Counted from the stretch's first letter, positions 3,959 through 49,198 are shown. The stretch is DNA of 64,000 nt from Collinsella sp. (GCA_048330275.1 DBFEIO010000026.1:14662-78661); one strand, 5' to 3'. Program-made: numbers and translations. The notes: generated by a model from the letters alone, not told the origin.

Positions 3959-4390
3959 GTGCCCAAGAAGGACAAGCCGCTCACGGCGAAGCAGGAAGCG
4001 TTCGCCCGCGAGATGGCCAAGCCCCGCGCCAAGCAGCAGGACGCGTACCGCGCGGCCTACGACTGCAAGCGCATGAACTACAACTCGATAAGCTGCGCCG
4101 CCTCCAAGCTGATGCGCGACCCACGAATCGCGCACAGAATCCAGGAAATCCGCGACGCGGCCGCCAAGGACTGCCGCTGGGAGCTGCAGGACGCGGCCGC
4201 CCCGCTGTTCGAGGTGCTGGACGGCGCGCTGCCCATCTTCCGCCGCCAGGCGGCCGAGGGCAGCATCAACGGCGACGCGCGCCTGGCCATAACCGAGAGC
4301 GTGAAGCTGCTCAACGACATGTTCGGCGTGGACGGCGCGAAGGCCGCCATGGCGGAGGCGGGGGTGACTATCGTTGACGACCTCGGTTAG
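3959..4390 (+). CDS. Terminase small subunit
   Basis: LTAKQEAFAREMAKPRAKQQDAYRAAYDCK...SKLMRDPRIAHRIQEIRD resembles the TerS helix-turn-helix N-terminus. It lies immediately upstream of TerL. GTG at 3959 follows GGAAGGAGG; the ORF-track start at 3917 is TTG. Confidence 0.65.
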   Translation: MPKKDKPLTAKQEAFAREMAKPRAKQQDAYRAAYDCKRMNYNSISCAASKLMRDPRIAHRIQEIRDAAAKDCRWELQDAAAPLFEVLDGALPIFRRQAAEGSINGDARLAITESVKLLNDMFGVDGAKAAMAEAGVTIVDDLG

Positions 4391-5657: not shown

Positions 5658-7171
5658 TGGAGAAGCGAGGCAACACGGGCTACGCCGAGGCGTGGCTGCG
5701 CCGCATGGGATACCAGCCGGACACCCGCATGCAGGGCATGGTGGGCGTCTGGTTCGGCTGGTTCGCGGCGAACAACGGCTGGTACCACTACAGCGAGCGG
5801 CGCGGCTTCCGCGTGTACAAGCGCGAGCGCGCCAGCCTGCACCCGGCGACGCTCGTGGCCGACGAGTGGGCCAGTCTGCTCATGAACGAGAGCACGATCA
5901 TCTCCAGCACGAGCGACGAGCGCCGCGCCTGGATGGCGCGCTACTTCGCCAACCCCACGGCGACGGGCGGCGTCGGCGACGAGGGGCACGAGGACGGCCA
6001 GGCCGCGCCGCAGCCGACAGAGGACGGCGACGCGCCCACATCGTTCGCCATGGACAACGCCGACTTCATAGCCCGCGCGTTCGCCATGGGCACGGGCGCG
6101 TGGGTCATCGAGCCGCGAGGCGTAACCGACAGCGCCTACACGCCCGACGCCGAGCTGCGCATCGTGCGCTACGACGCCACGCAGATAGTCCCGCTCACGT
6201 GGAGCGCCGACGACTGCACGCAGTGCGCGTTCGTGGGCCGCGTGGAGGTCGCCGGGCGCGACTACGACCAGTGCCAGGCCCACGTGCTCAAGGGCGGCAC
6301 CTACCACATCCTCACGCAGCTGTTCGACACCCGCACGCACAAGCAGGTGACGGTCGAGGGCATCAGCGCCGACATGGACACGCGCTGCACCCGCCCGCTT
6401 TTCGCGCTGGTGCGCCCCGCCGTGTCGAACCGCTTCTACGACTACTGTGCGATGGGCGCGAGCGTGTACTGCAACGCCGTGGGGGCCATGAAGGTGGTCG
6501 ACGAGGCCGCCACCTCCCTGCTCGACCACATTCGCGTGGGCCGCCCGCGCACGTTCGTGGACAAGACCCTCATAGAGTCCAAGACCGACAAGGGGCCGGA
6601 CGGCAGCCTCACGAAGACCTACTACGCCTTCGGCGAGGCCGACGACACCATCTTCAGCATGAACCCCGGCGACGAGGGGTCGGCCAAGATTCAGACCGTT
6701 CAGAGCGACCTCAAGGCCGACGAGAACGCCAGCGCCATCAACACGGGCCTGCGCCTGCTGTCGGTAGCGTGCGGCTTCGGCAACGGCTACTTCTCCTGGG
6801 AGTCGCACACGGGCCTGAAGACCGCCAAGGAGGTGGCGGCCGACAACTCGCAGCTGATGCGATCCATCCACCGGCACGAGAACGCCCTGCGCAAGTCCAT
6901 CGTGCGCCTCGTGAACGGCATGGCCGACGCGTGCCGCAGCATCAAGGGCGAGGCCGTGCCCTACGGCGACGTCACCGTGGACTTCGACGACTCCATCATC
7001 AGCGACACGCAGAGCGCGCGCGAGATGGCCATGAGCGAGGTCGGCGCGGGCATCATGGCCCCGTGGGAGTACCGCCGCCGCTTCTACGGCGAGACCAGCA
7101 ACGAGGCCAAGGCCAACGTGCCCGAGCAGCAGGGCGGCGCGTTCGACATGCTGGGCGACGGGCTCGCCTGA
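5657..7171 (+). CDS. Portal protein
   Basis: 504 aa, directly after TerL with an ATGA overlap. Position and size are typical of a portal; the SPP1 Gp6-like assignment is from recollection. Confidence 0.8.
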   Translation: MEKRGNTGYAEAWLRRMGYQPDTRMQGMVGVWFGWFAANNGWYHYSERRGFRVYKRERASLHPATLVADEWASLLMNESTIISSTSDERRAWMARYFANPTATGGVGDEGHEDGQAAPQPTEDGDAPTSFAMDNADFIARAFAMGTGAWVIEPRGVTDSAYTPDAELRIVRYDATQIVPLTWSADDCTQCAFVGRVEVAGRDYDQCQAHVLKGGTYHILTQLFDTRTHKQVTVEGISADMDTRCTRPLFALVRPAVSNRFYDYCAMGASVYCNAVGAMKVVDEAATSLLDHIRVGRPRTFVDKTLIESKTDKGPDGSLTKTYYAFGEADDTIFSMNPGDEGSAKIQTVQSDLKADENASAINTGLRLLSVACGFGNGYFSWESHTGLKTAKEVAADNSQLMRSIHRHENALRKSIVRLVNGMADACRSIKGEAVPYGDVTVDFDDSIISDTQSAREMAMSEVGAGIMAPWEYRRRFYGETSNEAKANVPEQQGGAFDMLGDGLA

Positions 7172-8847
7172 TGCTGGGGCCGGACTACATAGAGCACTTC
7201 ACCGACGCGGCGCAGGGGGCCATGGACGAGTACACCCTGCGCCTGGTGTGCATCTACGCCGCGCTCATAGGCTCCATCGACTTCGAGGGCGACAGCGCCT
7301 ACTCGCAGGCCGCCCGCAGGGCGACGCTTGCCGCCAAGGACGTGCAGAAGGCCATGAACGACGAGGGCCGCAGAGCCGCGCGCGAGGCTGCCAAGGCTGC
7401 GGCCGAGGCCGTGGCCAAGAGCGCCGAGGCCGACCTGGCCACGCTGGGCACGGCCATGGGCGCGCTGTCCAAGGCGATGCAGTGGAGGCTGCACAACTCC
7501 GCGCGGGCCACGGCGGCGGGAGTGCAGGACGTCGTGAGCCGCGACAACCTGAAGATGCCCGCCAACGTGCAGCGCGCCTACCTCGAAGTCGTGGCGCAGG
7601 CCGTGGCTCGGGTGAACTCGGGCATGGCGGGCTACGAGCAGGCCACCCGCGAGGCCGTGCTGAAGCTGGCGCGGCGCGGCGTGTCCGTCGTGGACTACAA
7701 GAGCGGGGCGTGGGCGCAGGCCGACGTGGCCATGCGCCGCCACATCCGCACCCAAGCGGTGCAGGCGGGCAGCCGCAACACGCTGGAGCTGCTTGAGGAG
7801 ACCGGGCACGACCTCGTGCAGACCTCCTCGCACGGCGGGGCGCGCGAGAGCCACGCCAAGTGGCAGGGCCGCGTGTTCAGCCTGTCGGGCAAGTCCAAGA
7901 AGTACCCGCCGTTCTACCGCGAGACGGGCTACGGCTCTGTCGATGGCCTGTGCGGCGCGAACTGCAAGCATGACTTCGGCATCTACGTGGAGGGCCAGCC
8001 GCTGCGCTACGAGCGCGACCCCGACGGAGGCGACGAGAAGCGCGAGGAGCGATACCAGGCCAGCCAGCAGCAGCGCGCCATCGAGCGCGAGGTGCGCACC
8101 ACGAGGCGCGAGGCCGCCGCGCTCGAAGCGGCTGGCATCGACAACACCAAGGAGCGCATGAAGCTGAGCAGACTCCAGCAGAAGCGCCGCGACCTCGTGG
8201 CGAAGTACCCGCACCTGGACGCAGAGCACGGGCGCGAGAACCCCTACGAGACGGGCAGCAAGGTGTACGCCCTCACCCGCCAGAAGGTGAGCCGCACGGC
8301 CTACATGGCGCACCCGAACACCAAGGCGCTCATAGCCGAGGCAGGCGTGAGCCAGAAGCGCGTGGGCGAACTGGTCAAGGCCAGCGGCGATGGCTTCGAG
8401 CTGAAAACCGCAGCAGAGCGCCGCGCGGCGCTGGACAACGCCATCAAGCGCGCCAAGGCCGAGAAGGAACGCGACCGGCGCGTGGCGAACGCCGCAGCCA
8501 TGGAGGTGCACGCAGACAAGCAGGCCAAGCACATCGCGGGCAGCCGCCAGCACGAGCAGTACGTTGCGAACCTGAAGCGCAAGGGCGGCGCGTACAAGGA
8601 GCCGAGCGGCATCACGGTGACGCTTGAGGAGGTGCGCGACCTCATAGCGAAGCACGCGGGCACGGGCACGGCGCAGACCACCAGAAGCGGCAAATGGAGC
8701 GGGCGCGAAACATGCGACGCCGGGCGTGTGATCGGCTACGTGATAGGCGATAATGGGGAGCACATACCGACGACGCGCTTCACCATCCACTACGCCGACG
8801 GCGACGTGCACATAGTCCCGACCAAACCAGAGGAGGCACAGCAATGA
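7171..8847 (+). CDS. MuF/SPP1 gp7-like minor head protein with a long C-terminal extension ending in a toxin-like domain
   Basis: The MuF core (SSHGGARESHAKWQGRVFS...GANCKHDF) is followed by a coiled linker and a terminal ~110 aa: KHIAGSRQH...AGTGT...TTRFTIHYADGDVHIVPTKP. Confidence 0.8.
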   Translation: MLGPDYIEHFTDAAQGAMDEYTLRLVCIYAALIGSIDFEGDSAYSQAARRATLAAKDVQKAMNDEGRRAAREAAKAAAEAVAKSAEADLATLGTAMGALSKAMQWRLHNSARATAAGVQDVVSRDNLKMPANVQRAYLEVVAQAVARVNSGMAGYEQATREAVLKLARRGVSVVDYKSGAWAQADVAMRRHIRTQAVQAGSRNTLELLEETGHDLVQTSSHGGARESHAKWQGRVFSLSGKSKKYPPFYRETGYGSVDGLCGANCKHDFGIYVEGQPLRYERDPDGGDEKREERYQASQQQRAIEREVRTTRREAAALEAAGIDNTKERMKLSRLQQKRRDLVAKYPHLDAEHGRENPYETGSKVYALTRQKVSRTAYMAHPNTKALIAEAGVSQKRVGELVKASGDGFELKTAAERRAALDNAIKRAKAEKERDRRVANAAAMEVHADKQAKHIAGSRQHEQYVANLKRKGGAYKEPSGITVTLEEVRDLIAKHAGTGTAQTTRSGKWSGRETCDAGRVIGYVIGDNGEHIPTTRFTIHYADGDVHIVPTKPEEAQQ

Positions 8848-13618: not shown

Positions 13619-14274
13619 TGCTGCCAGCCGCGCTCACGGCCGAGCGGGTGCGGCTGCCCGATGGCACGAGCGCCACGCGCTACCCGTGGAACGGCGAGGA
13701 GGTGCTGGTGCGCGACGACGCGCTCACGATCATCCGCGTCATCGAGGTGCTGACCGACGAGGGCAAGTCCGACGACCAGCGCCGGGACGAGTTCCTGGCG
13801 CTGGTCGTCGTGGACTGGGCGGACGCGTGGTGCGCATGCGACTACGACGCCGCCGAGTTCGTGCGGATGCGCGACGCGGCGGTATGGGACATGTGCGGAC
13901 TCGACCTGAGCGGCGACCGCCCGCACGAGACCCCGCTGTGGGACTTGGAGGAAGACGCGGCGCGCATACGCACCAGCTTCCGCCAGGCCTACGGCATCGA
14001 GTGGGACGAGGTGCGCGGTCGCATCAGCTTCGCCGAGTTCGTGGCACTCGTGGGCGGCTGCCCGCAGGACACGCCGCTCGGCGCGGCCATCCACTACCGC
14101 AACCCGGCGACCAAGCCGAAGCCAACCAAATACAACAGGCAGGAGGTCGAGGCCTGGAACGCCGCCCACAAGGCGTTCGAACTCGGCAAAGGCCGCAGCT
14201 CACACGGCTCTGAGGAAGGAAGCGACGCGGCGATGCGCGATGTGTTCGCCGCGCTCAAGAGAGCGACGAGGTGA
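13618..14274 (+). CDS. Gp15-like tail-module protein
   Basis: TAATG coupling with the upstream ORF. Lies directly upstream of the tape measure, as in A118-like phages (recollection). Confidence 0.5.
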   Translation: MLPAALTAERVRLPDGTSATRYPWNGEEVLVRDDALTIIRVIEVLTDEGKSDDQRRDEFLALVVVDWADAWCACDYDAAEFVRMRDAAVWDMCGLDLSGDRPHETPLWDLEEDAARIRTSFRQAYGIEWDEVRGRISFAEFVALVGGCPQDTPLGAAIHYRNPATKPKPTKYNRQEVEAWNAAHKAFELGKGRSSHGSEEGSDAAMRDVFAALKRATR

Positions 14275-16967
14275 GCATGGACGGCAACGTCATCATCAAA
14301 GCGGTGCTCGACACCGTTGACGTATCCAAGAACATCAAGGCCCTGGAGCGCGACCTCCAGGGCATCTCCTGGAAGAACATAACCGAGGGCGACGAGAAGG
14401 CCGCGAAGCTGTCGTCCTCGTTCAAGAAGGCCGGCACGGCCGCCACGGTGACGCTGACCGCGCCCGTGGTGGCCGCCGGCAAGGCCGTATTCGGCGTGGC
14501 CAGCGACTACGAGCAAGCCAACGCCCGCATAGCCGCCGCGCTCGGCGTGTCCGGCGAGGAGGCCGAGCGTTTCAGCGGCATAGGCAAGCGCATATACGAG
14601 GGTGGCTGGGGCCAGTCCCTGGACGAGGTCAACGATGCGCTGATCCAGTGCAAGTCCACCCTTCGCGACGTGTCCGACGAGGACCTGCAGACCGTCACCA
14701 CCAACGCACTCATGCTGTCGGACACCTTCGGCGCAGACGTGAACGAGTCCATACGCGGCACCAACGCCCTCATGGAGGGCTTCGGGCTGTCCGCCACCGA
14801 GGCCAGCGACCTGCTGACGGCGGGCATGCAGCGCGGCCTGAACTACACCGACGAGCTGGGCGACAACCTGAGCGAATACTCCGTGCGATGGGGCGAGGCG
14901 GGAATGAGCGCCAGCGAGTACTTCTCGCTGCTAGAAGCGGGCACGTCCAACGGCGCGTACAACCTGGACAAGGTGGGCGACTACCTCAACGAGTTCCTGA
15001 CGGCGCTTTCCGACGGCCGCATGGAGGAATCCATCGGCTCGTTCAGCGAGGGCACGCAGGAGGTCTTCGAGAACTTCAAGAACGGCAGCGCCACCGCCGA
15101 GGACATGCTGCAGGCGGTGCTGGGCGACCTCACGCAGATGCCAAACGAGTACGACAAGGCCGCGCTGGCCTCCACCCTGTGGTCCTCGCTGGGCGAGGAC
15201 AATGCCATGGGTATGATCGAGTCCCTGGCAGGCGTGCAGGACAGCTTCGGCGACGTGGCGGGCGCTGCGCAGCAGGCCCAGGAGGCCGCCTCCAACAGCT
15301 TCGCCGTGAAATCGCAGGAGGCCATGCGCGAGCTGCAGGGCTCCATCGAGCCGCTTGGCGAGCCGCTGCTCAACATCGCCACCAACGTGGCGGGCGTCGT
15401 CAAGTCGTTCTCCGAGTGGTTCGCCGGCATCGGCGAGGGCGGCCAGACCGCCGTGCTGGCGATCGCCACGATAGCGGCCGCCATAGGCCCCGTGCTGTCG
15501 ACGGTCGGCACCGTCGTGGACACCGTGCCGAAAATCGGAGCGGCCTTCCAGGTGGTCGGCAAGCTGGGCACCGGCGCGCTGGGGCTCATAGCCGCGCACC
15601 CCGTGGTAGCGGCCATAGCGGCCATCATCGCCGCCGTGGTGCTGCTGTGGAACAACTGCGAGGAGTTCCGCGACGCGGTGACCGCCGTGTGGGATGCCGT
15701 GTGTGCCGCGTTCGAGGTGGCCATCCAGGTGGCGGGCGACGTGGCCCAAAGCGTCGGCGAGTTCTTCTCGCAGCTCGGCGAGACGCTGGGCGGCGTGTGG
15801 GACGGCATCTGCTCCACGGTGCAGGGGGCCATCGACGCCATGGCCGGGTTCTTCCAAGGCCTGGCCGGCACCGCCTCGTCCATCTGGGACGGCATCTGCA
15901 ACGTGGTGCAGGTCGCCGTGATGCTGCTGGGCGAGATTCTGAACCTGGCCATCGAGACGCTGCTCATACCCTGGAACTTCATCTGGGAGAACTTCGGCGA
16001 GCAGCTGACGGCGGCATGGGACGCAATCTGCGGCGCGGTGGGAGGCTACATCGACGCGGTGAGCCAGGTCATCACCGACGTGGTGACGGCGCTCTCCGAA
16101 TGGTGGGGCGCGACGTGGGAAGGCATCAGCGGCACCGCCAGCGCCATATGGGAGGCCATCTACGGCGCGGTGAGCGCATACATCCAGTACGTTAGCGACG
16201 TGATAGGCGCAGCCCTTTGGGTCATCCAGGGCGTGTGGGACACGGTGTGGGGCGCGGTGTGCTTCACCGCCTCCAGCATATGGGACGCCATCAGCTCGGC
16301 GATAGTCGCGGCCATCAATGCCATCAGCTCCACCATATCGGCGGTGCTGTCGGCAATTCAGGCGGTGTGGGACTCCATATGGGGTGCCGTGAGCAGCACG
16401 GCGTCGAGCGTGTGGGGCGGCATCAGCTCCACCATATCCAGCATCGTGAACGGCATCCGCGACACGATCTCCAGCGTGTTCAACGCCGCCAAGGACACCG
16501 TGAGCAGCGTGTGGAACTCCATCAAGAGCGCCATCGAGACGCCGATACAGAACGCCCGCGACACCGTGCGCAACGTAATCGACTCCATCAAGGGGTTCTT
16601 CAACTTCTCGTGGTCGCTGCCCCACCTGAAGCTGCCGCACCTGTCCATCTCCGGCAGCTTCAGCATTGCCCCGCCGAGCGTGCCGCACTTCGGCATCGAC
16701 TGGTACGCCAAGGGCGGCGTGTTCAACGGCCCCAGCGTCATCGGCGTCGGCGAGGCGGGCCCCGAGGGCGTGGTGCCGTTCAACGAGCGCGGCGCGCGCC
16801 CGCTGGCCGAGGGCATAGCCAAGCTGCTCGACGGCAAGGGCGGCGCTGCCCATGGCGACACGAACGTGACAATCAACCTGTACGCGACCGTGCGGGAGGA
16901 GGCCGACATCGAGAAAATCTCCCGCCAGATAGCCAAGGAAATCAAACGGCAGGAGTGCTTCGCATGA
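14271..16967 (+). CDS. Tape measure protein
   Basis: 898 aa with hydrophobic central segments. The C-terminal half consists of periodic W/F repeats (VWDAVC, VWDGIC, SIWDGIC, AAWDAIC, AIWEAIY, SIWDAIS, AVWDSIW, SVWGGIS, SVWNSIK). The start is GTG 14271 or ATG 14277. Confidence 0.9.
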   Translation: MSMDGNVIIKAVLDTVDVSKNIKALERDLQGISWKNITEGDEKAAKLSSSFKKAGTAATVTLTAPVVAAGKAVFGVASDYEQANARIAAALGVSGEEAERFSGIGKRIYEGGWGQSLDEVNDALIQCKSTLRDVSDEDLQTVTTNALMLSDTFGADVNESIRGTNALMEGFGLSATEASDLLTAGMQRGLNYTDELGDNLSEYSVRWGEAGMSASEYFSLLEAGTSNGAYNLDKVGDYLNEFLTALSDGRMEESIGSFSEGTQEVFENFKNGSATAEDMLQAVLGDLTQMPNEYDKAALASTLWSSLGEDNAMGMIESLAGVQDSFGDVAGAAQQAQEAASNSFAVKSQEAMRELQGSIEPLGEPLLNIATNVAGVVKSFSEWFAGIGEGGQTAVLAIATIAAAIGPVLSTVGTVVDTVPKIGAAFQVVGKLGTGALGLIAAHPVVAAIAAIIAAVVLLWNNCEEFRDAVTAVWDAVCAAFEVAIQVAGDVAQSVGEFFSQLGETLGGVWDGICSTVQGAIDAMAGFFQGLAGTASSIWDGICNVVQVAVMLLGEILNLAIETLLIPWNFIWENFGEQLTAAWDAICGAVGGYIDAVSQVITDVVTALSEWWGATWEGISGTASAIWEAIYGAVSAYIQYVSDVIGAALWVIQGVWDTVWGAVCFTASSIWDAISSAIVAAINAISSTISAVLSAIQAVWDSIWGAVSSTASSVWGGISSTISSIVNGIRDTISSVFNAAKDTVSSVWNSIKSAIETPIQNARDTVRNVIDSIKGFFNFSWSLPHLKLPHLSISGSFSIAPPSVPHFGIDWYAKGGVFNGPSVIGVGEAGPEGVVPFNERGARPLAEGIAKLLDGKGGAAHGDTNVTINLYATVREEADIEKISRQIAKEIKRQECFA

Positions 16968-17677
16968 TATACAACGGCTTCGACTTCGCGCCGTGGTTCG
17001 ACACCCGGCTCGTGACCCGCTCGCTGCTGCCCGAGTACGAAATCGCCACGCGCGACGTGCCCGGGCAGCCCGGCTCGCGCTTCATGCGCGCAGAGCTGAA
17101 ACCCCTGACGATAGACGTGGCGGCGGCCTGGAGGGCGCGCCCCGCCGACGACATGGCGGCCCTTCGCCGCCTCATGGCCTCGCGCCTGCTGTGCCTCAAG
17201 GAGGCCGAGCTGTGGCTGGACGACGAGAGGCACTTGGGCCTGCGCTACATGGCCGTGCTGACCTCGCCGGGCGCGCTCGACACGCTGTGGCACACCGGCG
17301 AGGCCACGCTGACGTTCACGGCATACGACCCCGTGGCCTACGGGGCCGAGGGGCGCGCAACCGTGTCGGGCACCTCGGGCGTGCAGGTGGGCGGGACGTT
17401 CCGCACCTACCCCACCGTGACCGTCAGGCCCGGCGGCAGCACGTCGGCGCTGCGGCTGACGAACATGGACACGGGCGAGTTCGTGCAGATCGACAAGGCG
17501 GTGACGGCATCGAGCGCGGTGGTCATCGACATGGCCGCCCCGCAGGCCACGGTGGACGGCAGCCCCGCGCCCGTGACCTTCGAGAGTGACTTCTTCCCGC
17601 TGGAGCCGGGGGCCAACAGCCTCAAGCTGTCCAGCGGCACCGCGACGGTACAGTGGACGGAAAGGTACGTGGGCTGA
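16964..17677 (+). CDS. Distal tail protein (Dit)
   Basis: ATGA overlap after the tape measure gene. 237 aa. Confidence 0.7.
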   Translation: MIYNGFDFAPWFDTRLVTRSLLPEYEIATRDVPGQPGSRFMRAELKPLTIDVAAAWRARPADDMAALRRLMASRLLCLKEAELWLDDERHLGLRYMAVLTSPGALDTLWHTGEATLTFTAYDPVAYGAEGRATVSGTSGVQVGGTFRTYPTVTVRPGGSTSALRLTNMDTGEFVQIDKAVTASSAVVIDMAAPQATVDGSPAPVTFESDFFPLEPGANSLKLSSGTATVQWTERYVG

Positions 17678-20229
17678 TGATTCTGTGGGCATGCGACCGC
17701 TGGGAGGCGTACAAGGGACCCATCAAGACGCTGTTCGAGTGCGAGGACACGCGCGAGGTCAACGGCGAGAACGCCCTGAGCATCACAACGCTGGCGCGCC
17801 TGGACAAGGGCGACCGCCTGGTGTGGCGCGACCTCAAGGGCCGCTGGCACGAGAACATCGTGGACGGCGTGGAGGAGGAGCGCGCAAGCGCGGGCATCCT
17901 CTACACGTACTACTGCCCGACCTCGGCGCAAATCGAGCTCCTGGGCGACTACCTGGAGGACAAGCGCCCCTACGACGTGAGCGCCTACGCCGCGCTGGCC
18001 TCGGCGCTGTCCTCCTCGCGCTGGCAGGTCGGAACCGTGGCCGACCTCGGGCAGGCCGGCACGAACTTCTACCACACCAACGCATGGGCGGCCATCCACG
18101 ACGTGGCAGACACTTGGGGCGGCGAGCTGTCGTTCGAAATCCAGGTGAGCGGCACCAAGGTGACCGCACGCCGCGTGTGCATGGCCAAGCAGGTCGGCGA
18201 GGACAACGGCAAGCGTTTCACCTACGCCAAGGACCTCGTGAGCGTCAAGCGCAGCGTGGACGAGGGCAACGTGTGTACCGCCCTGTACGGCTACGGCAAG
18301 TCCCTGCAGACCGCCGACGAGGACGGCAACCTGACGGGCGGCTACGATCGCAAGCTGACCTTCGGCGACGTGAACGGCGGGCAGAACTGGGTGGGGTCGG
18401 CCGACGCGCTGGCGCGCTGGGGACGGCCCGACGGCAAGGGCGGCAAGGCGCACGTGTTCGGCGACGTGGAGTTCTCCGACTGCGAGGACGCCGCCGAGCT
18501 GAAGAAGCTCACCGAGGCGCAGCTGGCGCAGTCGTGCGTGCCCACCGTGTCCTACACCGTGGACGCCACGGCGCTTGCGCGCGCCGGCGAGGGCTTCGAG
18601 GGCGCGGACGAGGGCGACCTGGTGACCGTGGTGGACAAGGTGTACGACCCGCCGCTGCGCGTGCGCACCCGCATCACCAAGGTGGTGGAGGACCAGCTGC
18701 GCCCCGGCGAGGTCACCTACACGTTCGGCAACTACCAGACCGTGGCCGAGCTGATGGCCGCCCAGAAGTCCAGCGCAAAGAGAACGGCTTCGAGCATCCG
18801 CGCCACCGTGGCCGACGCGGTAAACGCGTCCAACAAGGCATCGACCGGCAAATGGGGCGAGAGCCTGGCGGCCTCCGAGAAGCGCCAGGAGGCGTTCGCC
18901 AGGGAGCAGGGCGGCGCGGCCAAGGACTACACCGACGAGGTGAAGGACGCGCTTGACAAGGCCCTCAAGGAGTACGCCGACAACGGGGACACCACGCTGG
19001 AGGAGGCGCTGAAGAAGTACTCCGACGACGGCAACCTGTCCCTTGAGGAAGTGCTCAAGCTCTACACCGACACGTCGATAGAGCAGAGCGAGAGCGTCCT
19101 CAAGCAGATAGACGAGGCCAACAAGGAGTACCTGGAAGGCGTCACGGACAAGCTCGACGTACGGCTGACGAGCGCCGAGGGCGAGGTGGAGGGGCTGCAG
19201 AAGCAGCTCGACCAGCTGCCGACCGATATCCGCAAGAAGATCGTGGAAATGCTCAACAGCGAGATAAACACCACGGGCGGCTGGGTGTACGAGGAGCCCG
19301 GCCAAGGCATCCTGGTGTACGACAAAAAGCCCGAGAGCGCCACCAAGTGCGTCAAGATAGGCGGCGGAATCATCGGCGTGGCCAACTCCAAGTACTCCAG
19401 CGGCGCGTGGAAGTGGCGCACGGCCATAACCGGCGACGGCGTGACCGCCGACGAGCTGACCACGGGCCGCATCAAAGGCGGGAACTCGTACTGGGACCTC
19501 GACAGCGGGGCCTTCTACCTGCGCGACGGCTCCATCTTCATGACCGACAGCAACGGCAACAGGGTCTATATCAACGCCACCAACGGCTTCCAGATATACG
19601 ACAAGAACGGCTCCATCATCGCGGGCACCGTGCTGGTGGGCAGCACCTCCATGTTCCGCTGCAACATGGTCGGCACGTCGTCAACCAACTACATCACCAC
19701 CGGCACGACGACGAACAACCACCCGGGAGCGTCGTTCGTGAACGGCTCGACCGAGTACTGCACCATCGAGGCCGTCCACGCGAAGGACAGCCCCACGGCG
19801 AGCTCGACCGACGGCGTGGGCATATCCACCTGCGGCTACGGCTTCCTGGCAGTCAACCGCTACTACCGCCAGACGTGGCTGACGACCCCCTACTACGCGG
19901 GCTACATGAGCCATCCCGACGAGCAGCTGTACATGAGGAGCGGCAACAGCAACGCGGGCGGCTCGGCGTACGTGAAGCTGCAGGAGAACTCCAACAACTA
20001 CGTGTACCTGGATAGCAGCCGCGCAGACATTGGGTCGTCGGGCACCGCCAGGATACTCGCCCCGAAGTTCGCCATAGGAACCAGTCCGAGCAGCGGCGGC
20101 ACCTACGGGTACACGGGCTCCACGCAGTTCATCGGGTGCATCACCAACAACGGCAACAACTGGACGTGGGGCACCATCAACGTGGTGAACGGAATCATCA
20201 CCGGCATGAGCAGCATCACGGGAAACTAG
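17677..20229 (+). CDS. Tail-associated protein (Tal; prophage-tail N-terminal domain)
   Basis: 850 aa after Dit. The N-terminal region resembles the prophage tail-endopeptidase family, with a central coiled coil. The family assignment is from recollection. Confidence 0.75.
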   Translation: MILWACDRWEAYKGPIKTLFECEDTREVNGENALSITTLARLDKGDRLVWRDLKGRWHENIVDGVEEERASAGILYTYYCPTSAQIELLGDYLEDKRPYDVSAYAALASALSSSRWQVGTVADLGQAGTNFYHTNAWAAIHDVADTWGGELSFEIQVSGTKVTARRVCMAKQVGEDNGKRFTYAKDLVSVKRSVDEGNVCTALYGYGKSLQTADEDGNLTGGYDRKLTFGDVNGGQNWVGSADALARWGRPDGKGGKAHVFGDVEFSDCEDAAELKKLTEAQLAQSCVPTVSYTVDATALARAGEGFEGADEGDLVTVVDKVYDPPLRVRTRITKVVEDQLRPGEVTYTFGNYQTVAELMAAQKSSAKRTASSIRATVADAVNASNKASTGKWGESLAASEKRQEAFAREQGGAAKDYTDEVKDALDKALKEYADNGDTTLEEALKKYSDDGNLSLEEVLKLYTDTSIEQSESVLKQIDEANKEYLEGVTDKLDVRLTSAEGEVEGLQKQLDQLPTDIRKKIVEMLNSEINTTGGWVYEEPGQGILVYDKKPESATKCVKIGGGIIGVANSKYSSGAWKWRTAITGDGVTADELTTGRIKGGNSYWDLDSGAFYLRDGSIFMTDSNGNRVYINATNGFQIYDKNGSIIAGTVLVGSTSMFRCNMVGTSSTNYITTGTTTNNHPGASFVNGSTEYCTIEAVHAKDSPTASSTDGVGISTCGYGFLAVNRYYRQTWLTTPYYAGYMSHPDEQLYMRSGNSNAGGSAYVKLQENSNNYVYLDSSRADIGSSGTARILAPKFAIGTSPSSGGTYGYTGSTQFIGCITNNGNNWTWGTINVVNGIITGMSSITGN

Positions 20230-20574: not shown

Positions 20575-21477
20575 ATGGCAACGCACGAGCTTACGCTCAA
20601 CCTCAAGAAGACCAACATAGCGCCGCCCGTCATCACCGTGCACCAGGGCGACAGCGCCGAGGTCCTGAAGGCCGCCATCTACGACGGCGACAAGAAGGCG
20701 GCCCTGACGGGCTGCAAGGTGCACCTCATGGCTGCGAAACCCGACCACACCTACGTGGAGCAGCAGTTCACTGGCATCAGCGACAACGTGGCCACCGTGA
20801 CGGTCGACCCCGCCGTCTTCGGCGTGGCCGGGCTGCTCAAGGTGTGCTACGTGCGTGTGCGAAACGCGGCGGGGCTGGACGCCACCACCGAGAACGTCCT
20901 GGTGAACGTGCTGCCCTCGGCGAGCGCGTCGGGCGAGATATCCGGCCCGTACGTCGATGCGGTGGAGGCGATCATCGCGAACCTCGAAGGGCAGCTAGCC
21001 GACGTGAGCGCGCTGAACGCGCAGATGCAGAAGGCCGAGGCCTCCCGCGCGAGCGCGGAAAACCAGCGCGCCACGAACGAGAAGGCACGCCAGACCGCCG
21101 AAACCAAGCGCGCAGAGGCCGAGAAGAAGCGAGCCACGGCGGAAAGCGACCGCGTGACCGAGGCGTCGCAGCTGAAGACGGCCTCGCAAGCCGCCACGGC
21201 TGCGGCAAACGGCGCGGCCTCGAACGCCGACGCGGCGGCAAACATCGCCCTGCAGATAGCCAACAGCGTGGCGCAGGGCAGCGCAGGCAGCTCGGACATG
21301 GCCAAGCAGAAGCAGCAGATAGCCGACCTGTACGGCAAGCTGGCCGACGCCACGAACGCGTTCATCTACGACGACGGCACCGTGTACTGCCCCGCCTCCA
21401 AGGCCAGCGCATCTGGCAGCACCATCACGTTCGGGAGCACCTGCACGGCGTCCGGCACAACCCTCAACCTCAAGTAG
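20575..21477 (+). CDS. BppU-like baseplate/fibre protein (N-terminal Ig-like domain plus Ala-rich coiled coil)
   Basis: The N-terminus (LTLNLKKTNIAPPVITVHQGDSAEVLKAAIYDGDK) resembles BppU_N, followed by an AEASRASAENQRATNEKARQTAETKRAEAEKKRATAE stalk. Confidence 0.6.
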   Translation: MATHELTLNLKKTNIAPPVITVHQGDSAEVLKAAIYDGDKKAALTGCKVHLMAAKPDHTYVEQQFTGISDNVATVTVDPAVFGVAGLLKVCYVRVRNAAGLDATTENVLVNVLPSASASGEISGPYVDAVEAIIANLEGQLADVSALNAQMQKAEASRASAENQRATNEKARQTAETKRAEAEKKRATAESDRVTEASQLKTASQAATAAANGAASNADAAANIALQIANSVAQGSAGSSDMAKQKQQIADLYGKLADATNAFIYDDGTVYCPASKASASGSTITFGSTCTASGTTLNLK

Positions 21478-21489
21478 AAAGGCAACGAA

Positions 21490-22398
21490 ATGGCACAAGC
21501 GAAAACCCTGTCGGTGGGCGGCATCGGCTACGAGGTCATCGACGATACCGCACGCAGCAACGCGCAGACGGCGCTCAACAACGCCGAGTACAACCGCCAG
21601 GGCCAAATCGGCAAGTACGGCGGGCAGAGCATCGCCACCATCCTGGCGGGAGAGATCGGCAGCGGCAGCGTGTACGACGCGCTGCACAAGCGAGCCGCCA
21701 ACGGCAACTTCGCGGGCCTGCGCGTGGGAGACTACATCGACGTGCCGCTGGTAAGCGCGTCGGGCGTGGCGGCCCAGCAGTCCGTGCGCTTCCTCCTGGC
21801 GCACTTCGACCCGTACTACTGCTGCGGCGACAGCTCCAAAGGCCACCACATCGCCTTCGTGGCCTCCGCGCCCATCGCCGTGGCCAAGACCGTGACCGGC
21901 GTTGCCAACGACAGCTTCCTGATGTGGAACACCACCAACACGAACCAGGGCACCGCCGACCGGAAATGCCCCTACCCCAACAGCAACCTCAAGGCGTGGG
22001 AGACGGCCTTCGAGGCGTGCCTGCCCGAGGGGCTGACCAAGTACCTGCTTACCCAGCGCGCGCTGCTTGAGGAGCGGTACAGCGCCAGCGGCGCGCTCAA
22101 CGACTCCAACTCGTGGAGCTGGCAGGATATCGGCAAGGTGTTCTCGCTGTCGGAGATGGAGGTGTACGGCTGCCCCGTGTGGGGGACGAAGGGCTACAGC
22201 GTGGGCTTCGACTGCCAGTTTGACCTGTTCCGAGACACGGCGCACCGAGTCAACGGAAATCGGTACGATTGGTGGTTGCGTTCCGTCATGGGTGGCTCCT
22301 CGTCCGACGTGTGCTACGTCGGCGGCAACGGCAATGCCCACTACTACTCGGCGACGAACGTCTGGGTTCGCCCCCGCCCCGGCTTCCTCGTCGGCTAG
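21490..22398 (+). CDS. DGR target protein: receptor-binding tail protein with a C-terminal C-type-lectin-like variable region
   Basis: The C-terminus (NRYDWWLRSVMGGSSSDVCYVGGNGNAHYYSATNVWVRPRPGFLVG) contains the VR. The WWLRS...VRP pattern is typical of DGR targets. Confidence 0.85.
   Translation: MAQAKTLSVGGIGYEVIDDTARSNAQTALNNAEYNRQGQIGKYGGQSIATILAGEIGSGSVYDALHKRAANGNFAGLRVGDYIDVPLVSASGVAAQQSVRFLLAHFDPYYCCGDSSKGHHIAFVASAPIAVAKTVTGVANDSFLMWNTTNTNQGTADRKCPYPNSNLKAWETAFEACLPEGLTKYLLTQRALLEERYSASGALNDSNSWSWQDIGKVFSLSEMEVYGCPVWGTKGYSVGFDCQFDLFRDTAHRVNGNRYDWWLRSVMGGSSSDVCYVGGNGNAHYYSATNVWVRPRPGFLVG
22259..22387 (+). repeat. DGR variable repeat (VR)
   Basis: 129-bp match to 22997-23125 with 9 mismatches, every one opposite an adenine in the TR copy. 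Confidence 0.9.
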
Positions 22399-22406
22399 CC
22401 AGCCGA
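22391..22406 (+). promoter_or_regulatory. Short hairpin (6-bp stem, 4-nt loop) 3' of VR; candidate DGR target-recognition structure
   Basis: tcggct-agcc-agccga. It overlaps the stop codon and lies just after a 14-nt G/C-only stretch (22369-22382). Confidence 0.4.
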
Positions 22407-22502
22407 GTGCTCTATACTCTGCTTTTAGGCGACCGCCTTGCGCGGTCGCCTCCTGCCCGCGAAGCGGGCCGTTTTTTTCGCCAGTTTCCCCAGGAGGTGC
22501 AC

Positions 22503-22973
22503 GTGAGCGGCGTCTACCAGCGCAACCGCGAGGTGTCCGAGTACAAGTTCTTCACACAGGCCATCGCCATCCGCGTGGAGGTTAATAAACTGATGGCGTC
22601 CTCCTCAGTAGTGCCCAAGGCCTACAGGCTGCTGAACGCGGTGCCGACCGTGGAGACGGCGCGCAGCATCGTGTACAACGTCAACCGCGCCGACTGCTTC
22701 TACCCTAACAGCTCGTTCAACGCGCTGGAGAGGAAACGCTACCTGACGCTGGCCATAGCGGACTGCGAGCAGCTTATGCTGGACATGCAGTGCCTCATGG
22801 ATATCGGCCTGCCCGTGAACGCCAACCGCTTCGAGGAGCTGGCGGCCATGGTCGAGGAGGAGATCAGGCTGCTGAAGGGGGCGCGCAAGAACGTGCGCGT
22901 GACGGGCAAGAAGTCCACCGAGGAACGCATAGCCGAGGCCGAGGCCGAGCTAGAGCGCCTGCGTTCGCTATAA
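22503..22973 (+). CDS. avd: Accessory variability determinant (Avd)-like protein
   Basis: GTG after AGGAGG. Helical, 156 aa, located between VR and TR exactly as in the mtd-avd-TR-brt layout. Confidence 0.65.
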   Translation: MSGVYQRNREVSEYKFFTQAIAIRVEVNKLMASSSVVPKAYRLLNAVPTVETARSIVYNVNRADCFYPNSSFNALERKRYLTLAIADCEQLMLDMQCLMDIGLPVNANRFEELAAMVEEEIRLLKGARKNVRVTGKKSTEERIAEAEAELERLRSL

Positions 22974-22996
22974 TGGACGGCGGTCGCGCCTTGTTT

Positions 22997-23125
22997 ATCG
23001 GTACAATTGGTGGTTGCGTTCCGTCATGGGTGGCTCCTCGTCCAACGTGTGCTACGTCAACAACAACGGCAATGCCAACTACAACTCGGCGACGAACGTC
23101 TGGGTTCGCCCCCGCCCCGGATTCC
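22997..23125 (+). repeat. DGR template repeat (TR), non-coding
   Basis: An invariant copy rich in AAC triplets (tcc AAC, gtc AAC AAC AAC, gcc AAC tac AAC). It lies 204 bp upstream of the RT start. Confidence 0.9.
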
Positions 23126-23328
23126 CTTATTGCCAGACCGAGTAGGCCCCAGGGCCGAAAGCAGAGCGCGAAGAGGAAGGAAGGCGCGACCATCGGGCAT
23201 GCGCCCGTAAATACGCACCCCGCGAGGGTGGCCGGACGCTGCTTGCATGGCGCGGCGCTCCGTGGCTTCGCCGCGTTTCATGGCCATACCTCAAGCGGCT
23301 GTCAGAGCCACATTGCAAGCCGTGCGGG

Positions 23329-24519
23329 GTGCTCTCTATGAACTCAGAGCAAAGAAGGGCCGCACGCCGCAAGCGCCGCGAGGAGAAGCGGGCCAAGGCA
23401 AAGGCCGAGCGTCTCAAGGCGTGCACCCTTGAGACGGTGGCCGACCTCAACAGCCTGTGCAAGGCTTCAAAGCAGGCCGCGCGGGGCGTCATGTGGAAGT
23501 CGTCCACGCAGCGGTACATGAAGGACTACCTACGCAACGCCGTCCTGTCCCGCCGCGACCTTTTGGAGGGCCGCGACATATGCCGGGGCTTCATACGGTT
23601 CGACCTATGGGAGCGCGGCAAGCTGCGCCACATCAGCGCCGTGCACTTCCCCGAGCGCGTGGTGCAGAAGTCACTGTCGCAGAACGCGCTCGTGCCCGCG
23701 ATCGTGCCCACCCTCATAGCCGCCAACTCCGCGAACATAAAGGGGCGCGGCACCGACTACGCCCTGAGGCTGCTCAAGCGCCACCTGGCCGACAACTGGA
23801 GGAAGCACGGCGACGATGGCTACATACTGCTCGGCGACTTTTCCGACTACTTCGCCCGCATAGCGCACGGCCCCGTCAAGGAACAGGTGGCTGCCGCGCT
23901 GCTCGATCCGCGAGTAATCGCCCTTGAGCACCGCCTGATAGACGCACAGGGCGAGGCTGGCCTGGGCCTGGGCAGCGAGCCGAACCAGATATGCGCGGTG
24001 GCGCACCCAAACCGCATCGACCACTACGTGGCCGAAATGCTGCGCCCCGAGGCCTACGGGCGCTACATGGACGACTTCTACCTGATCCACGAGTCCAAGG
24101 AGTACCTGCAGGTATGCCTGCTGCTCATAGAACGCGAGTGCGCGAAGCTCGGCATAGAGCTGAACCCGCGCAAGACCCGCGTGGTGAGGCTGACGCGCGG
24201 CTTCACGTGGCTGAAGAAGCGCATCTTCTACACGGAGACGGGCCGCATAGTCGTGAAGCCGTGCCGCGACTCCATCACGCGCGAGCGCCGCAAGCTGAAG
24301 AAGATGGCCCGCATGGTAGCCGATGGCATCATGACCCCCGAGCAGGTGGAGCAGAGCTACCAGAGCTGGCGCGGAGGCATGAAGCGGCTGGACGCGCACC
24401 GCAGCGTGCGGGCCATGGACGCGCTGTACCGCAGCCTGTTCGGAAATCCCGCGGGGGGGGGTTGCTCAATGCAATCCAAACCTGGAGGCGACACGGATGG
24501 GAACATGCCCCTACCCTAG
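23329..24519 (+). CDS. DGR reverse transcriptase
   Basis: RT motifs are present, including GRYMDDFYLIH (YxDD) and LGSEPNQ at the position of the DGR-type [ILV]GxxxSQ motif. Confidence 0.9.
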   Translation: MLSMNSEQRRAARRKRREEKRAKAKAERLKACTLETVADLNSLCKASKQAARGVMWKSSTQRYMKDYLRNAVLSRRDLLEGRDICRGFIRFDLWERGKLRHISAVHFPERVVQKSLSQNALVPAIVPTLIAANSANIKGRGTDYALRLLKRHLADNWRKHGDDGYILLGDFSDYFARIAHGPVKEQVAAALLDPRVIALEHRLIDAQGEAGLGLGSEPNQICAVAHPNRIDHYVAEMLRPEAYGRYMDDFYLIHESKEYLQVCLLLIERECAKLGIELNPRKTRVVRLTRGFTWLKKRIFYTETGRIVVKPCRDSITRERRKLKKMARMVADGIMTPEQVEQSYQSWRGGMKRLDAHRSVRAMDALYRSLFGNPAGGGCSMQSKPGGDTDGNMPLP

Positions 24520-25296: not shown

Positions 25297-25602
25297 ATGA
25301 CAGAAATGCAAGCAATCGCAGCCATCGTGCTGTCTTTCGCCGTGCCGTTCGCGGTGCAGCTGATCAAGACCGAGGCCATGACCGGCAAGGCCGCCCGCGC
25401 CCTGGCGCTGGGCTGCTCGCTCCTGGCGGGCGTCGTGACCGGCTTCGTGGGCGGCGTGCCCACAGACCCGGGCGCATGGGTAACGTGCGCCTTCGCCGTG
25501 GTAGGCGGCGTGCAGGCGGCCTACACGCTGTTCAAGTCGGTAGGCATCACATCCAAGTGGCTCGACGCCCTGCTGGGCGTGACCGTAGGCGGGAAGGAGT
25601 AG
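25297..25602 (+). CDS. Holin-like membrane protein
   Basis: 101 aa with 3 predicted hydrophobic segments. Lies immediately upstream of the endolysin. Confidence 0.6.
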   Translation: MTEMQAIAAIVLSFAVPFAVQLIKTEAMTGKAARALALGCSLLAGVVTGFVGGVPTDPGAWVTCAFAVVGGVQAAYTLFKSVGITSKWLDALLGVTVGGKE

Positions 25603-25605
25603 GCA

Positions 25606-26418
25606 ATGGCTAAACTGTTCGTCATCTGCGGCCACGGCGCTGGCGACCCCGGCTGCTGCGCAGGCGGCTACACCGAGGCCGAGCGCGTTCGCGCCCTGGG
25701 CCAGCGAATCAAGGAACTGGGCGGTTCCGAGGTCGAGCTGGGCGATACGTCCCGCAACTGGTACGCCGACGGCGGGCTTAACCGCCTGAGCACCGACGCG
25801 CCAGTGGTGGAGCTGCACATGGACGCCAGCGGCATCGCCACGGCCCACGGCGCGCACGTCATCATCAAGGAGGGCTTTGAGCCTGACGAGTACGACAATG
25901 CGCTGGCCGACAAGCTGGCGGCGTTCATGCCCGGGCGCTCCGAGAAGCTGGTGCGCCGTTCCGACCTCGCGAACCCGAACCGAGCCGCCGCGCGCGGCAT
26001 CAACTACCGCCTGTGCGAGAACGGCTTCATCGACAACGACGGCGACCGCGAGAAGTTCAACGGCAACCTGGACGAGCTGGCGCGCATCTACCTGGAATGC
26101 TTCGGCATCACTGCTGGAAGCGCCCCCGCAGCCGTCCCGCAGCCGCAGCCTGCGCAGCAGGAAACGATCGAGAACTTCGGCGGCACCTACCGCTGCACTG
26201 TGGACTACCTGCGCGTGCGCGACGCCCCCGGCCTGGGCGGCACCGAGGTGGCGCACTATTCCAGCGGCGAGACCGTGACGCTGGATAACTGGTACAAGAT
26301 CGCCGACGGCTACGTTTGGGGCCGATACACGGGCTACAGCGGCGCAACGCGCTACATCGCCGTGGGCAAGGCCACGGGCAAGCCAGAGGCCGACGACTAT
26401 CTGGTGAAGGTGGGATAG
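25606..26418 (+). CDS. Endolysin: N-acetylmuramoyl-L-alanine amidase with a C-terminal SH3-like domain
   Basis: The pattern ICGHGAGDPGC...ELHMDAS...ENGFIDN is Amidase_3-like. The C-terminus (YRCTVDYLRVRDAPG...YVWGRYTGYSG) is SH3-like. Confidence 0.85.
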   Translation: MAKLFVICGHGAGDPGCCAGGYTEAERVRALGQRIKELGGSEVELGDTSRNWYADGGLNRLSTDAPVVELHMDASGIATAHGAHVIIKEGFEPDEYDNALADKLAAFMPGRSEKLVRRSDLANPNRAAARGINYRLCENGFIDNDGDREKFNGNLDELARIYLECFGITAGSAPAAVPQPQPAQQETIENFGGTYRCTVDYLRVRDAPGLGGTEVAHYSSGETVTLDNWYKIADGYVWGRYTGYSGATRYIAVGKATGKPEADDYLVKVG

Positions 26419-26838: not shown

Positions 26839-27202
26839 TGGTGGAGGCGCGGAGAATCGAACTCCGGTCCACGAAAGCCCCCTGATTGGCATCTCCAAGC
26901 TCAGTCGCTGGTTTAGTCTCGGACGCTTTGCGCGCAGCGACACGCTCGCAGCATCCCAACCGGTTCGATCTTAGCCTGCGCCATACCGATTACGTGCGCA
27001 GGAGCATTCCCCTAACATGACGTCGCACCGGTGTCGGGGAAATCACCGGGTTGACGCGCCGCTATAAATTAAGCAGCGAGAGCCATAGGCTCAAAAGAAG
27101 AGTTGTTGTCAATTCAATTTGACGGCACCCCTGTTTAACGAGGCGAGGAGACCTCGGCTTGCTTCCTCTCTCAGAGCTATCGTGTCGAAACCAGTCGCCC
27201 CC
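26839..27202 (-). ncRNA. ssrA: tmRNA
   Basis: On the minus strand, the 5' end reads GGGGGCGACTGGTTTCGACA and the 3' end reads GGAGTTCGATTCTCCGCGCCTCCACCA. The tag ORF reads GAC AAC AAC TCT TCT TTT GAG CCT ATG GCT CTC GCT GCT TAA (DNNSSFEPMALAA). Confidence 0.9.
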
Positions 27203-49140: not shown

Positions 49141-49198
49141 ATCGCCTGAGGCCACCGCAAAAGAGCCTGCCCCCTTCTGCGGTGGTTCTCCCCCAGCG

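Follow-up and report, generated by a model that had tools for sequence, protein, structure and literature searches.

A 64,000-nucleotide (nt) stretch of DNA from Collinsella sp. (GCA_048330275.1, DBFEIO010000026.1:14662-78661), hereafter the window, very probably carries a complete diversity-generating retroelement (DGR) in the tail module of a prophage, where it would rewrite the DUF6273 tip of a tail protein by a mechanism like that of the prototype DGR of phage BPP-1. A target gene (21490-22398), a gene for an Avd-like protein (22503-22973), a template repeat (TR; 22997-23125) and a reverse transcriptase (RT) gene (23329-24519) follow one another in this order; coordinates are those of the whole window, and all parts of the cassette lie on the plus strand. 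A preliminary description had named the same four parts at these positions and read them as a DGR. That reading is borne out by differences between the TR and the variable repeat (VR) that are confined to adenines, by an RT of the DGR type, by the fold of the Avd-like protein and by the transfer of sequence from TR to VR. Neither the class of the RT nor the fold of the target C-terminus, the two points on which it was to stand or fall, contradicted it outright. The element is evidently complete and active, its activity being read from natural variation among related loci.

Adenine-specific differences between the template and variable repeats

A repeat finder returned one strong direct repeat in the region, comprising two 129-nt copies that are offset by 738 nt and 93% identical. 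The first copy (22259-22387, plus strand) covers codons 257-299 of the target gene. The second (22997-23125, plus strand) begins 24 nt after the avd stop codon and is non-coding, as had been described. Alignment and a per-codon table revealed nine mismatches between the copies, all nine at adenines of the second copy, and identity at 104 of 104 non-adenine positions. The probability that nine random mismatches would all strike the 25 adenines among the 129 positions is 1.0e-7. Since the differences occur only at adenines of the second copy, the downstream non-coding copy is the TR and the copy at the 3' end of the target gene is the VR. Seven of the nine mismatches fall at the first or second position of AAY codons in the target frame. 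Twenty-four of the 25 TR adenines lie upstream of a G/C run near the end of the repeat, and the mutable A-sites of the VR extend over 22259-22358. They make up nine AAY codons and six codons with a single A, that is, 15 rewritable target codons (residues 257-290) that could encode about 1.2e14 protein variants with no stop codon reachable. No second target or further VR-like copy was found within the window.

The direction of transfer was examined in 60 related Collinsella loci with both repeats, which were compared without gaps. TR adenines account for 701 of the 757 TR/VR mismatches in this set. There are 59 distinct VRs versus 31 distinct TRs; entropy is close to zero in the A-columns of the TR and reaches 1.96 bits in the matching VR columns, and the VR is hypervariable only in those columns. 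Polymorphisms at non-A positions of the TR recur in the VR in equal numbers of loci (39/21 at eight columns, for example), which indicates that information flows from TR to VR, as repeated copying predicts. A further 32 loci from IMG/VR gave 378 of 428 mismatches at A. Recent activity was assessed with five pairs of loci that share at least 99% identity over the 600 nt of target gene upstream of the VR and have identical TRs. Between the members of these pairs, 41.7% of the 24 VR A-sites differ, compared with 0.6% of the upstream positions and 0.8% of the non-A sites of the VR. Since close pairs with identical TRs have diverged at 42% of their A-sites, the element has worked recently. Sequence is thus transferred directionally from TR to VR, and the VR has diversified recently in nature.

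Two irregular arrangements were seen among the related loci. L009 and L012, which lie 35 kb apart on contig CATXMO010000002.1, carry cassettes with identical VR, TR and 600 nt of target sequence upstream of the VR, and are the only pair of loci with a common VR; they represent either a tandem or duplicated prophage or an assembly concatemer. In L020 (3737-3850) and L109 (around position 612), a VR-like repeat with a VR-type 3' end, in the sense of the homing site discussed below, is fused directly to the spacer RNA that otherwise follows the TR, at a shared CCGAGT, so that the avd gene and a separate TR are missing there. Either the fusion reflects a true deletion of 738 nt, mediated by microhomology, or it arose in the assembly.

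Downstream of the last mutable adenine, VR and TR share a 14-nt G/C run, CGCCCCCGCCCCGG (VR, 22369-22382; TR, 23107-23120). The next position, 22383, is C in the VR of 59 of the 60 loci, and its TR counterpart is A in all 60; past this step the tails of VR and TR diverge. The change is synonymous in the target (GGA/GGC), which argues that the base is not transferred rather than that selection acts on the protein. Roseburia phage Shimadzu, Faecalibacterium phage Roos and the faecal phage contig MT835543 also show this TR-A/VR-C step behind the G/C-rich end. The VR of a DGR ends in an initiation of mutagenic homing (IMH) sequence and its TR in a non-identical counterpart, IMH*; a G/C-rich run at their start bounds mutagenesis. 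By analogy, the segment at 22369-22406 (plus strand), which consists of the G/C run, the C at 22383 and a VR-specific tail to CCAGCCGAGT, is a putative IMH, and the end of the TR a putative IMH*. In BPP-1, IMH and IMH* show the same arrangement of a G/C run followed by divergence (PMC5758913).

Three inverted repeats lie at or beyond this site on the plus strand. The first, TCGGCT-AGCC-AGCCGA at 22391-22406, has a 6-bp stem and a 4-nt loop and spans the target stop codon directly after the VR. Its stem is altered in one (u24) of 39 distinct sequences from about 70 loci and the other changes are in the loop; with no covariation, a structural role is only suggested. The second, at 22427-22451, is G+C-rich, has a 10-bp stem and a 5-nt loop and is situated downstream of the IMH. 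A G+C-rich inverted repeat in this place is present in about a third of DGRs and is not essential for membership. In some of the related loci, one pair of the 22427-22451 stem has changed from G:C to T:A in a compensatory manner, and the fold of 22385-22490 is more stable than shuffled sequences (z = -4.8). This repeat is a candidate for the hairpin or cruciform that is recognized at a DGR target, the analogy being with BPP-1 (PMC5758913, PMC3240598). The third, GCCCGC-GAA-GCGGGC followed by seven T residues (22455-22478), was identified as an intrinsic-terminator-like hairpin by a terminator scan and by folding, and it is conserved in related loci. The repeats at 22391-22406 and 22427-22451 could equally serve transcription termination instead.

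The reverse transcriptase, the Avd-like protein and the spacer RNA

The RT gene (23329-24519, plus strand) encodes 396 amino acids (aa) from a GTG at 23329, matches Pfam RVT_1 and contains GRYMDD, in line with the YMDD-bearing RT of the preliminary description. The true start may be the ATG at 23338, which would give 393 aa; this start is the more likely because many relatives align only from residue 3-4, and it does not contradict the earlier annotation. The best relative of this protein in the PDB is 8ub7_A, the RT of a Bordetella phage DGR (bRT; E 4.7e-11, residues 64-365); a group II intron maturase reached E 1.6e-5 over 84 residues only in the same type of sequence search. The RT also matches phrog_1423 (218 bits). 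A tblastn search of annotated phages returned 81 records, including phages with characterized DGRs. The closest is the RT of Shimadzu (52.5% identity), followed by those of Faecalibacterium phages, phage nd12, Vibrio phages, an archaeal virus and BPP-1 (brt; E 4e-8 over 84% of the query). The RT aligns with brt and with many phage RTs over about 80-89% of its length, and the RTs of the relatives that were checked (BPP-1, Shimadzu, Roos and MT835543) are all within DGR cassettes. An invariant arginine presumably corresponds to Arg74 of bRT by our reading of the alignment. At the signature site, where DGR RTs have [I/V/L]GxxxSQ and those of introns QGxxxSP (PMC7826257), the RT reads LGSEPNQ, Shimadzu LGSETSQ and bRT IGSLTSQ. 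LGSEPNQ and GRYMDD are present in 80 of 80 Collinsella loci. These comparisons place the RT, as far as its sequence tells, in the DGR subclass.

The open reading frame (ORF) at 22503-22973 (plus strand) encodes 156 aa from a GTG preceded by AGGAGG, and its G+C content at third codon positions (GC3) is 0.89. It had been described as a helical Avd-like ORF. The accessory variability determinant, Avd, binds the RT as a pentamer of four-helix bundles. An AlphaFold2 model built from 38 sequences (predicted local distance difference test score, pLDDT, 85.9) shows a four-helix bundle with a fifth, C-terminal helix, the helices comprising residues 13-32, 39-65, 71-100, 107-129 and 139-155. Foldseek ranked 2gsc and 2rld highest with this model, followed by Avd itself (8ub7_B-E and 4dwl; template modelling (TM) score 0.83-0.85 when normalized to the target, root mean square deviation 2.0-2.5 A). 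We take 2gsc and 2rld to be members of the 23S_rRNA_IVP family, PF05635, which is presumably also the family that contains Avd. Four of 38 diverse members of the Avd-like family match PF05635 (best E 9e-4), and one of 227 relatives bears the source name '23S rRNA-intervening sequence protein'. The protein is 26% identical to the annotated Avd of Shimadzu (E 4e-13). PDB sequence searches with the protein alone or with the 38-sequence profile returned nothing meaningful, only spurious matches. We accept the product as a divergent Avd on the basis of its predicted fold and these relatives. The extra C-terminal helix, AEAEAELERLRSL (residues 139-155), occurs in most of this Avd family and is absent from the Avd proteins of Shimadzu and BPP-1.

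The spacer between TR and RT contains a structured RNA of Rfam family RT-2 (RF03077; 23128-23352, plus strand), with a full-length match to model positions 1-222 at 145.1 bits against a gathering score of 40. It starts three bases past the TR and extends into the first codons of the RT gene. RT-2 is also found in the TR-RT spacer of other Collinsella loci, Shimadzu, Roos and MT835543, as well as in nine of 20 more distant relatives from IMG/VR. BPP-1 has RF03022 (Phage_DGR) at the equivalent place. In the paper that defined RT-1 to RT-19, only RT-10 was tied to a DGR, as the BPP-1 spacer, and the other motifs were speculated to belong to other DGRs (PMC5737381). Judged by the company it keeps, RT-2 turns out to be the probable spacer RNA of this gut-phage DGR lineage.

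A second element of this RNA would bracket the TR. The sequence GGTCGCGCCTT (22982-22992, plus strand), four bases before the TR, is perfectly complementary to AAGGCGCGACC (23181-23191, plus strand), a stretch that is unpaired in the Rfam RT-2 model, and the two are paired in the fold of the transcript. Equivalent duplexes were found at the same relative place in Shimadzu (GGGTTATTTGCT/AGCAAATAACCC), L141 (GTTATGCCTT/AAGGCATGAC), Roos (GTATCTCT/AGAGGTAC), MT835543 (GTATCTTT/AAAGATAC), L164 (CAAATCTC/GAGATTTG) and L159 (CAAGTCTC/GAGGCTTG). This bracketing duplex is supported by covariation but not proven. It would match by position the cPRT-Stop duplex of BPP-1, which is formed by sequences upstream and downstream of the TR, stops cDNA synthesis and has been predicted in 207 of 278 DGRs (bioRxiv 10.1101/2023.10.23.563531). 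L164, a distant IMG/VR relative with 42% RT identity, has two RT-2 RNAs flanking its RT (2760-2991 and 5366-5595). The second has its own 12-bp upstream complement and may be a second template unit.

A wider proposal can be made for RT-2, to which no function was assigned when it was published. The RNA would serve as the scaffold for cis-priming in a large lineage of gut-phage DGRs that spans phages of Bacillota and Actinomycetota, and its 'unpaired' linker would form the TR-bracketing stop duplex with the sequence upstream of the TR. We give this proposal an even chance of being correct. If it is true, the architecture of the BPP-1 ribonucleoprotein is reproduced by an RNA family without recognizable similarity. 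In a bolder version, the diversified DUF6273 tip would bind host mucosal ligands and not a bacterial receptor.

Target protein, proposed mechanism and alternative explanations

The target gene (21490-22398, plus strand) encodes a candidate tail-fibre tip or receptor-binding protein, the 302-aa tail protein of the preliminary description, whose C-terminus is ...DWWLRSVMGGSSSDVCYVGGNGNAHYYSATNVWVRPRPGFLVG. Pfam DUF6273 matches residues 215-295 (E 1.6e-7; 31.8 bits against a gathering score of 23.5). In an AlphaFold2 model with a pLDDT of 95.8, an N-terminal beta-hairpin and a long helix (residues 5-40) are followed by a globular DUF6273 module (about 41-302). The elements of residues 208-301 are arranged in the order beta-alpha-alpha-beta-beta-beta-beta, and the VR lies over the last strands and loops. 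An exhaustive search identified 941 related representative clusters in which the module (about 41-302) is C-terminal in proteins of 280-1837 aa. DUF6273 is matched by 64 of 71 diverse homologues, some of which carry Collagen, BppU_N, Phage_tail_fib, Phage_fiber_rpt or Mtd_N at their N-termini. The same family is a published DGR target in Faecalibacterium phages and in phages nd4 and nd12 (PMC11792537, PMC10743442).

Foldseek searches of viral models (BFVD) with the target gave 28 significant neighbours, which are named as DUF6273, receptor-binding, tail-fibre or tail-collar fibre proteins. The variable region of a DGR target is expected on a C-type lectin (CLec) or immunoglobulin (Ig) fold, with its variable residues exposed to solvent. 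The sole significant match in the PDB was the IgA peptidase of Thomasclavelia ramosa (9qa6; E 5.5e-5, TM 0.39); a human C-type lectin was not significant (E 4.8), and Mtd (1YU0), TvpA and formylglycine-generating enzyme (FGE) were not returned. The N-terminal domain of 9qa6 has been identified as DUF6273 and described, from its experimental structure, as containing a C-type-lectin-like core akin to the C-terminal domain of Legionella Lcl (PMC12402451, PMC12237041). A putative CLec fold for the tip of the target is therefore supported indirectly, because the DUF6273 domain of its only significant PDB neighbour has been called C-type-lectin-like. Comparison of the target profile with BPP-1 Mtd by hhalign indicated no relation (probability 0.2%), and all PDB sequence searches with the target or a 71-sequence profile gave only spurious matches. 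Taken together, these searches and those with the Avd-like protein yielded cytochrome oxidase, a Fab and cactin. Membership in the Mtd family was rejected, there being no similarity by sequence, profile or Foldseek.

We propose that these parts act together as in BPP-1, from which we infer the priming site, the complex between Avd and RT, the roles of the duplex and hairpins, and the binding of a receptor. A transcript would span the end of avd, the TR and the RT-2 spacer, and would fold such that 22982-22992 pairs with 23181-23191 and brackets the TR. The RT together with the Avd-like protein would bind this RNA, and cDNA would be primed from within the spacer, starting inside the G/C-rich 3' end of the TR. 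The RT would copy C, G and U faithfully and insert random nucleotides opposite A until synthesis stops near the bracketing duplex. In the last step, this cDNA would take the place of the VR in the 3' end of the target gene, with the IMH, and perhaps also the inverted repeats beyond it, directing the replacement. About 1e14 stop-free variants could arise in this way at 15 codons (residues 257-290) of a DUF6273 ligand-binding tip. The position of the gene after those for Tal and BppU_N proteins, together with the tail-fibre domains of its homologues, points to a receptor binder and to tropism switching. The benefit would most likely be that the phage keeps or switches its receptor on Collinsella cell surfaces.

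Several observations weigh against the reading of the cassette as an active DGR of this kind. Activity is read from natural variation, not from experiment, and about 7% of the TR/VR mismatches across the 60 loci are not at A, partly as a result of indels in the ungapped comparison. A scan for a sigma-70-like promoter of the avd-TR-RT unit found none. The RT signature keeps L, G and Q, but its S is replaced by N. No match to a Pfam, NCBIfam, PHROG or PADLOC family was obtained for the Avd-like protein itself, and Foldseek gave its model only weak E-values (7e-3 to 1), which is common with helical bundles. Neither sequence nor fold links the target directly to the DGR variable proteins of solved structure, Mtd, TvpA and AvpA. 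The bracketing duplex is significant against shuffles in only some lineages (p 0.005-0.47), and about a dozen Collinsella loci have a C·C mismatch in it; complementarity is kept with unrelated sequences, yet the uneven p values and the mismatches leave the duplex supported and not proven. Some of these points would suit a decayed relic in which TR and VR are left from past activity, since a single window cannot show current activity, the promoter scan was negative and the signature serine has become asparagine. We nevertheless consider a relic very unlikely: all ORFs are intact with high GC3, TR and VR are identical at all non-A positions, and near-identical prophages with identical TRs differ at 42% of their A-sites. 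The change from S to N is fixed in 80 of 80 loci that still diversify, and is hence a lineage trait compatible with activity.

The likelihood that the RT derives from another retroelement or defence system, such as a group II intron, a retron or an abortive infection (Abi) or defence-associated RT (DRT) system, and that the repeats are an ordinary duplication, is in our estimate almost nil. The best NCBIfam match of the RT is indeed a group II intron RT/maturase model (group_II_RT_mat, E 7.7e-12), and PADLOC gave many generic RT matches of at most 58 bits. The scores, however, are far under the family cut-offs (45 vs 300 bits for group_II_RT_mat and 24.8 vs 235 bits for the retron St85 model), an Rfam scan found no group II intron or retron RNA family anywhere in the window, and bRT is the best structural relative over the full length. 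These results argue strongly against the other RT classes, assignment to which would have contradicted the preliminary description, and a plain duplication is rejected because it leaves the adenine-only mismatches and the TR-to-VR transfer unexplained. In a further alternative, the DGR would be real and its target an accessory adhesin for mucus glycans, immunoglobulin or other bacteria instead of a determinant of host range. In favour of such an adhesin, the only solved DUF6273 domain is in a secreted IgA peptidase of a gut bacterium (PMC12402451), the DUF6273 targets of nd4 and nd12 include capsid- or fibre-like 'tentaclins' (PMC10743442), and no receptor is known; such a role would have parallels in the Ig-like and 'tentaclin' targets that have been proposed for DGRs of other gut phages. 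We nonetheless regard it as unlikely, although not negligibly so, because the target gene comes right after the Tal and BppU_N genes, the place of siphophage receptor-binding proteins, because homologous modules are fused to Collagen, Phage_tail_fib, BppU_N and Mtd_N N-termini, and because the BFVD neighbours are annotated as receptor-binding or tail-fibre proteins.

Prophage setting, related systems and significance

A siphovirus-like prophage occupies the window from position 1 to about 26.8 kb. Family scans identified a large terminase (4374-5657), a MuF-type minor capsid protein (5692-8847, plus strand), a tape-measure protein (14271-16967) and a Prophage_tail/Tal-like protein (17653-20229) upstream of the cassette. 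The BppU_N baseplate protein (20575-21477, plus strand; Pfam BppU_N, E 1.7e-10) is encoded directly 5' of the target gene and is the likely holder of the target protein. The preliminary description had placed the cassette after Dit, Tal and BppU genes; the last two stand, and the ORF labelled 'Dit' (16993-17589) had no family match in domain and PHROG-type family scans. The lysis genes said to follow were confirmed as a holin (25297-25602) and an Amidase_3 endolysin (25606-26418). The 1051-aa head protein at 5692-8847 combines a Phage_min_cap2 domain (MuF-like, residues 541-836) with a C-terminal Ntox50 toxin domain (939-1043) and, by its domains, looks like a phage-borne polymorphic toxin.

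The prophage adjoins a tmRNA gene, as had been proposed, at 26839-27202 on the minus strand (Rfam tmRNA 157.6 bits, and ARAGORN). The 3' end of this gene faces the prophage, 105 nt separate it from the last phage ORF, and the same junction is seen in the related loci L001 and L080. The tag peptide given by ARAGORN, ARQPGDFPDTGATSC, is without the usual hydrophobic (L/V)AA-type end, so the resume codon may be mis-called. When the tmRNA 3' region was compared with the rest of the window in search of a repeated attachment site, only a 13-mer chance match emerged, and the other end of the prophage therefore lies beyond the window. In L029 (7505-7806; genome labelled Eggerthella sp. AM16-19), the prophage end adjoins three tRNA genes and not the tmRNA as in the window, and this phage group thus uses at least two integration sites. 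Farther along the window, 46001-50000 has a G+C content of 53-56%, compared with about 60-66% in adjoining segments, with few confident ORFs at 45.4-49.2 kb; it is possibly foreign or non-coding DNA.

The G+C content of the window, 63.5%, and the near-identical loci in Collinsella genomes agree with the high-GC Gram-positive host of the preliminary description. A scan with the RT protein, using one genome per species, recovered at least 406 related loci. The best 80 of these are 89-96% identical and nearly all from Collinsella, with a few labelled Coriobacteriaceae or otherwise. IMG/VR contains 549 related viral contigs. A nucleotide search of annotated phages matched only a 99-nt piece of the Shimadzu RT, indicating that there is no close annotated phage in that collection.

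The closest described system, as judged by sequence, is the DGR of Shimadzu (LR596903.1: tail fibre orf22, Avd orf23, TR and RT orf24). The two share the order of parts and the lysis genes after the cassette, with identities of 52.5% for the RT, 26% for Avd (E 4e-13) and 33% for the C-terminal module of the target (E 2e-35). Shimadzu likewise has an RT-2 RNA between TR and RT (144.9 bits) and, in the corresponding position, a predicted duplex that brackets the TR; its TR and VR differ in an adenine-specific manner and show the TR-A/VR-C step ahead of TTCC. The two systems differ in the phylum of the host, which is Bacillota for Shimadzu and Actinomycetota here, and in the baseplate genes, which are of the myovirus type in Shimadzu (P2 GpU, GpJ and GpI families) and of the siphovirus type here (Tal and BppU). 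Shimadzu further has a longer target of 431 aa, an Avd without the additional C-terminal helix and an RT with the canonical LGSETSQ in place of LGSEPNQ.

The BPP-1 prototype (mtd-avd-TR-brt) has the same order of parts and the same genomic position, between the last tail genes and those for lysis. In both systems, mutagenesis is adenine-specific and acts on AAY codons, the IMH opens with a 14-nt G/C run, the VR is followed by inverted repeats, Avd has the form of a four-helix bundle (modelled here), and a structured spacer RNA separates TR and RT; the RT aligns with brt over 84% of its length (E 4e-8). Unlike in BPP-1, the target belongs to DUF6273 and has no detectable similarity to Mtd, and the spacer RNA is RT-2 (RF03077) instead of Phage_DGR (RF03022). 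The RT is 23-24% identical to that of BPP-1 and 65-70 aa longer, and Avd is 13% identical. The DGRs of Faecalibacterium phages (Roos, Pioen, Lelie and CP11) and of nd4 and nd12 likewise have the VR at the C-terminal end of DUF6273 (PMC11792537, PMC10743442). Their RTs are 31-34% identical to the one described here, and Roos shares the RT-2 RNA (175 bits) and the TR-A/VR-C step. In contrast to the window, several of these DGRs act on two targets, or on targets whose VR is N-terminal ('tentaclins'), the Lelie and nd12 DGRs have no RT-2 match at the gathering score, and their hosts are Bacillota. The N-terminal domain of 9qa6 belongs to the same Pfam family as the target and has been reported to contain a core like a C-type-lectin-like domain (PMC12237041), but it is part of a cell-surface protease, is neither phage-borne nor diversified, and resembles the target at a TM of 0.39 with no sequence-level match.

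The preliminary description had suggested that this instance may not have been described. A literature search found no paper describing a Collinsella DGR, which agrees with the suggestion; the element is, on the other hand, abundant in public genomes and IMG/VR, and its type has been published for Roseburia and Faecalibacterium phages. It is clearly a new example of a well-known type of system and not a new type, and these results leave the understanding of how DGRs work unchanged. To our knowledge, DGRs are the only natural system of targeted protein hypermutation in prokaryotes, and each well-documented example helps for that reason. The presence of the element in hundreds of Collinsella genomes and more than 500 IMG/VR contigs provides a rich TR/VR record from one abundant human-gut genus, a natural set suited to asking which positions of the VR are in use and under selection. 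The signature of DGR RTs is seen to tolerate N for S, and the orphan Rfam family RT-2 gains a concrete, if still probable, job as the spacer RNA. The DGR type defined by DUF6273 and the RT-2 RNA is thereby extended from phages of Bacillota to an actinobacterial host.

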